From IMG/VR virus record IMGVR_UViG_2695420763_000016, positions 1-12,847 of that record: a stretch of DNA of 12,847 nucleotides. The stretch is one strand, 5' to 3'. This document shows, piece after piece, positions 3,001-6,000 of this stretch. The first letter of the stretch is position 1, and each line of letters starts with the position of its first letter. Source of the stretch: a virus (Duplodnaviria; Heunggongvirae; Uroviricota; Caudoviricetes). Position numbers: made by a program.

Positions 3001-6000
3001 GTGATGCCGGATGATGGCGCGCCGTTCCGCTACAGCTTCAGCGCCCTGAAGGACCGCCATAATGCCGTTGAGGTGAACTGGATTGACCCGAACAACGGCT
3101 GGGAGACGGCGACAGAGCTTGTTGAAGATACGCAGGCCATTGCCCGTTACGGTCGTAACGTCACGAAGATGGATGCCTTTGGCTGTACCAGCCGGGGGCA
3201 GGCGCACCGCGCCGGGCTGTGGCTGATTAAAACGGAACTGCTGGAAACGCAGACCGTGGACTTCAGCGTGGGTGCGGAAGGGCTTCGCCATGTACCGGGG
3301 GATGTCATTGAAATCTGCGATGATGACTATGCGGGTATCAGCATCGGCGGGCGCGTGCTGGCGGTGAACAGCCAGACCCGGACGCTGACGCTCGACCGTG
3401 AAATCACGCTGCCATCCTCCGGTACCACGCTGATAAGCCTGGTTGACGGAAGTGGCAATCCGGTCAGCGTGGAGGTCCAGTCCGTCACCGACGGCGTGAA
3501 GGTGAAAGTGAGCCGTGTTCCTGACGGCGTTGCTGAATACAGCGTGTGGGGGCTGAAGCTGCCGACGCTGCGCCAGCGCCTGTTCCGCTGCGTGAGTATC
3601 CGTGAGAACGACGACGGCACGTATGCCATCACCGCCGTGCAGCATGTACCGGAAAAAGAAGCCATCGTGGATAACGGGGCGCACTTTGACGGCGACCAGA
3701 GCGGCACAGTGAATGGTGTCACGCCGCCAGCAGTGCAGCATCTGACCGCCGAAGTCACTGCAGACAGCGGGGAATATCAGGTGCTGGCGCGCTGGGACAC
3801 GCCGAAGGTGGTGAAGGGGGTGAGCTTTATGCTTCGCCTGACCGTGGCAGCGGACGACGGCAGTGAGCGGCTGGTCAGCACGGCCCGGACGACAGAAACC
3901 ACATACCGCTTCACGCAGCTGGCGCCGGGGAACTACAGGCTGACAGTCCGGGCGGTAAATGCGTGGGGGCAGCAGGGCGATCCGGCGTCGGTATCGTTCC
4001 GGATTGCCGCACCGGCAGCGCCGTCACAGATTGAGCTGACACCGGGCTATTTTCAGATAACAGCGGTCCCGCGTCTTGCGGTGTATGACCCGACGGTACA
4101 GTTTGAGTTCTGGTTTTCGGAAACGCGGATTACCGATATCAGGCAGGTTGAAACCACAGCCCGCTACCTTGGCACGGGGCTGTACTGGATAGCCGCCAGT
4201 ATCAATATCAAACCGGGCCATGATTATTACTTTTATATCCGCAGTGTGAACACCGTTGGCAAATCGGCATTTGTGGAGGCTGTTGGCCAGCCGAGTGATG
4301 ATGCATCCGGCTATCTGGATTTTTTCAAAGGAGAGATAGGGAAAACCCATCTGGCTCAGGAGTTGTGGACTCAGATTGATAACGGTCAGCTTGCGCCTGA
4401 CCTGGCGGAAATCAGAACGTCCATCACGGATGTCAGTAATGAAATCACGCAGACCGTCAATAAGAAACTGGAAGACCAGAGTGCAGCGATCCAGCAGATA
4501 CAGAAGGTTCAGGTTGATACAAATAATAATCTGAACAGCATGTGGGCTGTGAAGCTGCAACAGATGAAGGACGGACGCCTTTATATTGCGGGTATCGGTG
4601 CCGGTATTGAGAATACGCCAGCAGGAATGCAGAGTCAGGTGCTGCTGGCGGCAGACAGGATTGCGATGATTAATCCTGCGAATGGCAACACAAAGCCGAT
4701 GTTTGTTGGTCAGGGCGATCAGATATTCATGAATGAAGTGTTCCTGAAATATCTGACGGCTCCCACCATTACCAGTGGCGGCAATCCTCCGGCATTTTCC
4801 CTGACATCAGACGGAAAGCTGACCGCTAAAAATGCGGATATCAGTGGCAGTGTGAATGCGAACTCCGGGACGCTCAACAACGTCACGATTAACGAGAACT
4901 GTCGGGTTCTGGGAAAACTGTCCGCGAACCAGATTGAAGGCGATCTCGTTAAAACAGTGGGCAAAGCTTTCCCCCGGGACTCCCGTGCACCGGAACGGTG
5001 GCCATCAGGGACCATTACCGTCAGGGTTTATGACGATCAGCCGTTTGACCGGCAGATTGTTATTCCGGCGGTGGCATTCAGCGGCGCTAAACATGAGAGA
5101 GAGCATACTGATATTTACTCCTCATGCCGTCTGATAGTGCGGAAAAACGGTGCTGAAATTTATAACCGTACCGCGCTGGATAATACGCTGATTTACAGTG
5201 GCGTTATTGATATGCCTGCCGGTCACGGTCACATGACGCTGGAGTTTTCGGTGTCAGCATGGCTGGTGAATAACTGGTATCCCACAGCAAGTATCAGCGA
5301 TTTGCTGGTTGTGGTGATGAAGAAAGCCACCGCAGGCATCAGTATCAGCTGAATTTTATAACCCATATACGGGCGCCAGAAATGGCGCCTTTTTTATTGC
5401 AGAAAAGCGAGAGGTAATTATGCGTAAATTATGTGCTGTTATTCTGTCCGCAGTAGTCTGGCTGGTTGCCGCTGGTACGCCAGCGAGCGCAGCAGAGCAT
5501 CAGTCCACACTAAGCGCCGGGTATCTTCAGACCCATACTGATATGCCAGGCAGCGATGACCTGAAGGGCATTAACGTGAAATACCGTTATGAATTTACGG
5601 ACACGCTGGGGCTGGTGACGTCATTCAGCTATGCAGGAGACAGGAATCGCCAGCTGACCCATTACAGCGATACCCGCTGGCATGAAGATTCCGTTCGTAA
5701 CCGCTGGTTCAGCGTGATGGCGGGGCCCTCTGTGCGCGTGAATGAATGGTTCAGTGCGTATGCGATGGCGGGCGTGGCTTACAGCCGTGTGTCGACTTTT
5801 TCCGGGGATTATCTCCGCGTAACTGACAACAAGGGGAAAACGCATGATGTGCTGACCGGAAGTGATGACGGTCGCCACAGCAACACGTCTCTGGCGTGGG
5901 GGGCTGGCGTGCAGTTTAACCCGACCGAATCCGTGGCCATTGATATTGCTTATGAAGGTTACGGCAGTGGCGACTGGCGCACTGACGGTTTCATCGTGGG

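Follow-up and report, generated by a model that had tools for sequence, protein, structure and literature searches.

We provide evidence that gene J of a lambdoid prophage is a mosaic gene, whose receptor-binding domain (RBD) most likely uses OmpC and not LamB, the receptor of lambda J. The gene is located in a stretch of 12,847 nucleotides (nt), positions 1 to 12,847 of IMG/VR virus record IMGVR_UViG_2695420763_000016 (the window), which is the right arm of the prophage and ends at an integrase beside the host gene dusA. Its segment-wise identities to known alleles indicate that recombination put J together from three or more exchangeable segments: a lambda/21-type hub with part of the FNIII domains, an alpha-helical shaft (AHS) with upper beta-prism of the type found in phages 21 and VT1-Sakai (28 residues longer than that of lambda), and an Ig-like RBD of the type found in VT1-Sakai and the gpJ variant 1A2, which would be joined via a conserved beta-prism linker. 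We assign a probability of roughly 0.85 to this explanation as a whole (mosaic J, three exchangeable segments, OmpC-binding RBD).

The open reading frame (ORF) of J is intact according to the ORF list and its translation (1159 amino acids (aa) plus stop) and has 83% aa identity to lambda J (NP_040600, 1132 aa) across the full length. Its Pfam domains, all matched well over the cut-offs (PF24801, PF13550, PF24421, PF24489, PF09327 and PF12421), form the same complete series as in lambda J: FNIII-A_GpJ, Phage-tail_3, Ig_J, Ig_J_second, Phage_Tail_Tip and Ig_GpJ_C. The latter (PF12421) is the C-terminal receptor-binding domain and covers aa 1029-1159 with an E-value of 2.6e-37. Gene I is found upstream of J, with lom and a side-tail-fibre gene downstream, in the order also seen in lambda and in Escherichia coli O55:H7 DEC5D. 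With both the full domain series and the operon position in place, J is a lambda-type tip attachment protein (central tail fibre). For its subdivisions we follow the names of the lambda gpJ cryo-EM work: hub, FNIII-1, FNIII-2, AHS (lambda residues 809-861), beta-sheet prism (CSF) and Ig-like RBD.

To locate breakpoints, J was aligned with the J genes of lambda, phage 21 (OL657228), PhiR55_1 and VT1-Sakai, after which sliding identities and maximum chi-square breakpoints were calculated. The nucleotide identity to lambda is 95.6% over 1873-4280 and falls from 4281 on: 72% over 4281-4365, 23% over 4366-4515 (where lambda is without 84 nt) and 62% over 4516-4694. It is back at 90% in the linker at 4695-4889, while the RBD at 4890-5352 is effectively unalignable (about 53%). 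With blastn, lambda gives no alignment to the window past 4902 until similarity restarts at 5892, inside lom. Distal J consequently has to be described as two divergent modules with a conserved island between them, not as one divergent block.

The other alleles show different patterns. Phage 21 is 95.9% identical over 1873-4775, long shaft included, against 56% over 4968-5352. VT1-Sakai reaches only 65-79% up to position 3996 (60-66% at the aa level), against 93.7% over 3997-5352 and 98-99% for the last 490 nt. In the first divergent module (4281-4694) the identity is 96% for phage 21 and 87-99% for VT1-Sakai. PhiR55_1 is uniformly similar over the full length (96.2%). Table 1 gives the corresponding aa identities per domain. 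In addition, the RBD is 99% identical to that of PhiR55_1 and 63% to that of the gpJ variant A8, and the linker is 90-96% identical across all alleles compared. The 28 residues by which the shaft exceeds that of lambda correspond to four heptads.

Table 1. Amino acid identity of the window J protein to four reference alleles, per domain.
Domain	Window aa	Lambda	Phage 21	VT1-Sakai	DEC5D
N-terminal part	1-609	98%	99%	66% (aa 353-609 only)	99%
FNIII-1	610-714	97%	99%	60%	95%
FNIII-2	716-818	88%	94%	89%	85%
AHS	819-890	34%, 28-residue gap	99%	97%	41%, 28-residue gap
Upper CSF	891-941	59%	94%	98%	57%
Lower CSF	942-1008	90%	91%	96%	93%
RBD	1009-1159	42%	69%	99%	100%

An earlier note on this DNA, made from the sequence alone, had suggested that J may be mosaic, with a lambda-like and GC-rich first two thirds and a change at about 4300. 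Sliding plots of GC content and identity against lambda J and other lambdoid J alleles, which it had proposed as a check, do not show uniform high identity to lambda. The likeness of the first two thirds is borne out (95.6% up to 4280, GC content 0.599 upstream of 4047), and the computed breakpoint at 4281 is close to the position given. The DNA string quoted in that note is present at 4510-4539, and both quoted peptides occur in the J translation. Its description of the C-terminus as unlike lambda holds for the last 150 residues or so (42% identity), but not for the distal third as a whole, given the 90% island at 4695-4889.

In lambda the C-terminus of J determines receptor choice, as the earlier note states. 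The distal 350 aa of J match solved gpJ structures with E-values of 1e-99 to 4e-122; the best match in PDB is 'A8 gpJ 713' (9wca/9wcb, E 3.6e-122), followed by lambda gpJ (8xcj/8iyk, E about 1e-100). Brodel et al. (Nature 2024; PMC11338833) fused natural gpJ C-termini onto lambda gpJ at aa 964 and observed that delivery with 1A2 and A8 is LamB-independent and OmpC-dependent, using an MG1655 recipient lacking lamB and ompC and carrying ompC variants on a plasmid. Of 23 natural OmpC variants in the same study, 21 supported delivery with at least one of A8 and 1A2. 1A2 was active with the OmpC of EDL933 and inactive with that of MG1655 (K-12), whereas A8 accepts K-12 OmpC too. The fusion point (lambda aa 964) is equivalent to aa 991 of the window J protein, and the segment determining OmpC specificity thus lies wholly in a module that is present in the window.

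The sequences of 1A2 and A8 are available as recoded DNA in the supplement of that study, here read from a PDF whose machine conversion had introduced frameshifts, and were located by DNA words. Because plain tblastn was fragmented by these read-error frameshifts, the comparison with 1A2 was made with a purpose-written, frameshift-tolerant protein-to-DNA alignment. Over window aa 975-1159, 167 of the 176 readable positions are identical to gpJ-1A2 (94.9%), against 65% for A8 by the same route; distal to lambda aa 964 the window protein is thus nearly identical to gpJ-1A2. Five of the nine mismatches fall where the reading is evidently faulty, and one of these five would give a stop codon. At the other four positions 1A2 has P979, N993, K1077 and T1157, which are exactly the residues of Sakai J; at all other positions of the RBD, Sakai J and the window agree (149/151 residues). 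From this we infer that 1A2 carries the Sakai/O157-type RBD, from which the window RBD would depart at two positions only (R1077 and S1157). Close identity to lambda J around residues 985-1132, including the receptor-contacting loops that mark a LamB-type allele, was not found (42% aa identity). The A8-type RBD (PDB 9wca) is related (63%, with indels) yet represents another allele.

Given this near-identity to an RBD with experimentally established OmpC dependence, the window RBD most likely uses OmpC and not LamB, in line with the suggestion in the earlier note that the receptor may differ from that of lambda. The predicted host range is LamB-independent and would take in cells with OmpC of the EDL933 type or of many further natural variants, while excluding those with K-12 OmpC.

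Several points weigh against this reading. Nine of the 185 positions of 1A2 were unreadable and about five mismatches are put down to faulty reading after the PDF conversion; the window RBD differs from both 1A2 and Sakai at R1077 and S1157, which may affect the range of OmpC variants recognised; and the window holds only part of the prophage. Moreover, 1A2 was assayed on the short shaft of lambda, whereas the window J has a long one (PMC11338833). Finally, in the source data of Extended Data Fig. 2 of the same paper, the values for 1A2 and A8 in panel C (OmpC-EDL933) are those of panel B (OmpC-MG1655), with 1A2 at 2%. These values conflict with the text, with Fig. 1b (98.7%) and with Extended Data Fig. 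8 (98.3%), and panel C is probably a duplicated sheet.

One could consider that the window RBD, for all its similarity to 1A2, does not recognise OmpC but, for instance, OmpF, FhuA or still LamB. The receptor assignment for this phage depends on sequence likeness to 1A2, the two deviating residues fall within the RBD, and according to the literature lambda can gain the use of OmpF through a few point mutations. On the other hand, Sakai J shares all but two RBD residues with the window and has all four real 1A2 differences, while 1A2 itself needs OmpC in a lamB-deleted background. The low identity to the lambda RBD speaks against LamB, and both A8, a related allele, and phi330, an unrelated siphophage of enterohaemorrhagic E. 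coli (EHEC), use OmpC as well. Overall, we regard another receptor as unlikely and OmpC as the better assignment.

The way in which shaft and RBD are combined in different phages shows how the gene came about. The DEC5D prophage occupies the same dusA locus and has an RBD identical to that of the window, yet its shaft is of the short lambda type. Over 12.8 kb the sole structural difference between the two is a patch at 4353-4538, which in DEC5D (4830-4931) is replaced by the short form. Phage 21 combines the long shaft with another RBD, and lambda the short shaft with yet another RBD. Since DEC5D, phage 21 and lambda combine shaft and RBD differently, the two elements assort independently, which is recombination and not gradual divergence. 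The mosaic structure itself follows from the incongruent identities, because each of the four references (lambda, phage 21, VT1-Sakai and DEC5D) has its own stretches of near-identity to the window, and these are not nested; the mosaicism proposed in the earlier note is thereby supported. Swaps of the RBD probably cross over in the conserved lower prism (4695-4889).

The alternative would be that distal J diverged from lambda by point mutation under diversifying selection, without recombination, in which case the gene would not be truly mosaic. RBDs are under strong host-driven selection, and those of lambda and the window remain homologous (42% identity, one Pfam family). Nevertheless, the same RBD (99-100% identity) is present in J genes with a proximal part of only 60-66% aa identity (Sakai) or with the other shaft type (DEC5D), phage 21 J matches the window everywhere but in the RBD, and the transitions in identity are sharp on both sides of the conserved linker. 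Divergence by point mutation alone is consequently highly improbable, and recombination is to be preferred.

Two further observations concern exchanges around these modules. The proximal part of J is nearer to lambda (95.7%) than to DEC5D (92.8%), which suggests additional small conversion patches in this part of the gene. At the other end, the block that is unlike lambda covers the RBD, the J terminator (5371-5400) and most of lom. The 5' four fifths of lom (5420-5891) give no blastn alignment with lambda lom, similarity restarting at 5892. Relative to lambda, lom seems to travel with the RBD block.

The base composition tells a different story. A change-point scan places a GC step in J at 4047 (aa 725), where GC drops from 0.599 to 0.505 and GC at third codon positions (GC3) from 0.734 to 0.568; the chi-square value is 29.4, against a maximum of 18.5 among 200 codon shuffles. 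Lambda J (0.593 to 0.532), phage 21 and PhiR55_1 have their step at this very codon, and DEC5D J has it at aa 716, nine codons before. It adjoins the boundary between FNIII-1 and FNIII-2 (aa 714/716), near the Sakai identity breakpoint at 3997, and lies 234 nt upstream of the drop in identity to lambda. The composition shift described in the earlier note, like the divergence, is real; it is located at 4047, however, not at 4300, and is shared with lambda. Because lambda has the step at the same codon, it is no sign that the window J differs from lambda J: the argument for mosaicism from base composition fails, and the GC shift was ruled out as a marker of a mosaic junction. The step is an old property that the J alleles compared have in common and that belongs to the distal module (from FNIII-2 on). 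That the AT-richer composition reflects a recent import of foreign DNA particular to this phage is hardly credible, since the step, although it exceeds the codon-shuffle expectation (GC 0.60 to 0.51, GC3 0.73 to 0.57), recurs at or within nine codons of the same position in these other alleles and precedes the loss of lambda identity.

The cryo-EM work on lambda gpJ with LamB provides a template for triggering, and by analogy the phage would use OmpC along a lambda-like pathway. In the J trimer each RBD would dock onto one porin monomer by inserting its bottom loops. After that, the bases of the RBDs would spread and the beta-prism would rotate. Next, the helical shaft would flip and partly refold into beta-strands, and finally the FNIII strings would detach and the hub (tail tip) would open for ejection of the DNA.

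A single-sequence AlphaFold2 model of aa 800-1159 is poor (mean pLDDT 38.9). One continuous helix at J residues 841-891 is the only part that reaches a pLDDT of about 55-76. The hydrophobic periodicity of the shaft is strongest at 3.6 residues, with low power at 3.5. Together the helix model and the periodicity are weakly indicative of a longer helical bundle in the shaft. More tentatively, and with the odds clearly against it, the shaft with its 28-residue extension might be a separately exchangeable module that alters the stand-off distance or the refolding trigger; it could suit porins under a thicker O-antigen, with shaft and RBD being shuffled independently to tune infection.

The abundance of the modules was determined in complete E. 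coli genomes (n=5426, at least 80% query coverage). The RBD allele of the window (query: last 378 nt) is present in 3371 genomes (approximately 62%), with 2550 records at an identity of at least 95%, and the long-shaft patch (4353-4538) in 3393. The RBD of lambda itself is found in 96 genomes (98 with any match, all at least 99% identical), and the five carriers among the matches listed are laboratory strains (DE3 lysogens, K-12 and B derivatives). Full-length J genes of the same gap-free architecture occur in many genomes, with identities up to 96.8%. Furthermore, the window RBD is present in 57 phage records, mostly of long-tailed Stx1a/Stx2a-converting phages. The LamB-binding textbook allele of lambda is thus the rare one in sequenced E. 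coli, whereas the OmpC-type allele is very common. This allele has been described before, as have its modular exchange point and its receptor, and all three have previously been used for engineered delivery vectors. The value of the present result lies mainly in annotation and host-range prediction: spread of the prophage is expected to depend on OmpC instead of LamB and will probably not reach K-12 strains.

Table 2 lists the features of the window. The closest complete genome is that of E. coli O55:H7 DEC5D (97.0% identity over 95% of the window). As the integrase abuts dusA, the junction between prophage and chromosome (attachment site) should be near 11346-11433. The side-tail-fibre gene has collagen-like repeats, internal repeats at 6861-7099 (by blastn) and a Phage_fiber_C end; the short second ORF that follows at about 7399-7668 has one more Phage_fiber_C domain, an arrangement also seen in DEC5D and VT1-Sakai. 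The three NleG genes belong to a cargo region of low GC content (0.33-0.45), which is flanked by the tail-fibre genes and the integrase. This NleG cargo points to an attaching and effacing E. coli as host, and together with the closest genomes a host of the O55:H7/O157:H7 kind is suggested, which fits the predicted OmpC phenotype; the ompC gene of the host itself lies outside the window.

Table 2. Features of the window, with gene J divided into its modules (positions in nt; empty cells, not given).
Feature	Positions	Strand	Basis or remark
Gene I	1141-1812		Pfam Lambda_tail_I; upstream of J
J, tip attachment protein/central tail fibre	1873-5352	+	ORF, Pfam, identity to lambda J
Proximal lambda/21-like part of J: hub domains, FNIII-1, most of FNIII-2	1873-4280	+	nt identity
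GC change-point adjoining FNIII-1/FNIII-2 boundary	4047	+	Change-point scan, controlled by codon shuffles
Divergent module 1: alpha-helical shaft and upper beta-prism, phage 21/Sakai type	4281-4694	+	nt and aa identity
Conserved linker: lower beta-prism, aa 942-1006	4695-4889	+	nt and aa identity
Divergent module 2: Ig-like RBD (PF12421), Sakai/1A2 type	4890-5352	+	Identity, Pfam
Terminator-like hairpin (5371-5390) and T-run after J	5371-5400	+	Terminator scan
lom (Ail/Lom outer-membrane protein)	5420-6019	+	Pfam Ail_Lom, E 2.7e-123
Side-tail-fibre gene	6078-7397		Pfam; downstream of lom
Three tandem NleG-family type III secretion effector genes	7774-8352, 8425-9054, 9136-9777		Pfam T3SS_NleG, E 1e-43 to 4e-47
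DinI-like gene	9938-10186	-	
Integrase	10248-11345	-	
dusA, host gene	11434-12471	+	

Among known systems, PhiR55_1, vB_EcoS-640R1, 500465-3 and PhiR46_1 match the window J gap-free over the full length (94.6-96.2% nt identity over 3480 nt) and differ by scattered substitutions only; the source paper of the PhiR phages (PMC13190303) contains no outer-membrane receptor data. VT1-Sakai (Sp15) J and many long-tailed Stx1a/Stx2a-converting phages have the same long shaft and a nearly identical RBD (99% at the aa level), but according to its annotation the J of VT1-Sakai is split by mutation, whereas that of the window is intact. Phage 21 J is alike up to 4775, including the long shaft, and differs in the RBD (69% aa identity), which by eye appears closer to the A8 type (an alignment impression, with no identity computed). 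Lambda J (NP_040600; PDB 8IYK, 8XCJ and 8XCK) has the same domain order, 97-98% aa identity over residues 1-714 and an RBD of the same fold family; it differs by a shaft that is 28 residues shorter and 34% identical, by an upper prism of 59% and an RBD of 42% identity, and by the use of LamB.

Other OmpC-using phages are less directly comparable. Phage 434 J is cited in the literature as the classical OmpC case. Phi330 has another J RBD and infects K-12; it fits the general OmpC pattern only, and as support for the window allele it was set aside. A 2026 receptor-prediction preprint was not applicable, as it treats GpJ of Drexlerviridae and not lambdoid J. The OmpC-binding A8 gpJ (PDB 9wca/9wcb) has the same C-terminal strand as the window, but its RBD has 63% identity and shows two indels, an insertion of 5 residues and a deletion of 4. 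The nearest counterpart with a known receptor is gpJ-1A2, OmpC-dependent and LamB-independent, with essentially the same RBD as the window. It combines this RBD with the lambda hub, a short shaft and the lambda prism up to aa 964 in recoded DNA, whereas the window J is a native gene with the long 21/Sakai shaft.

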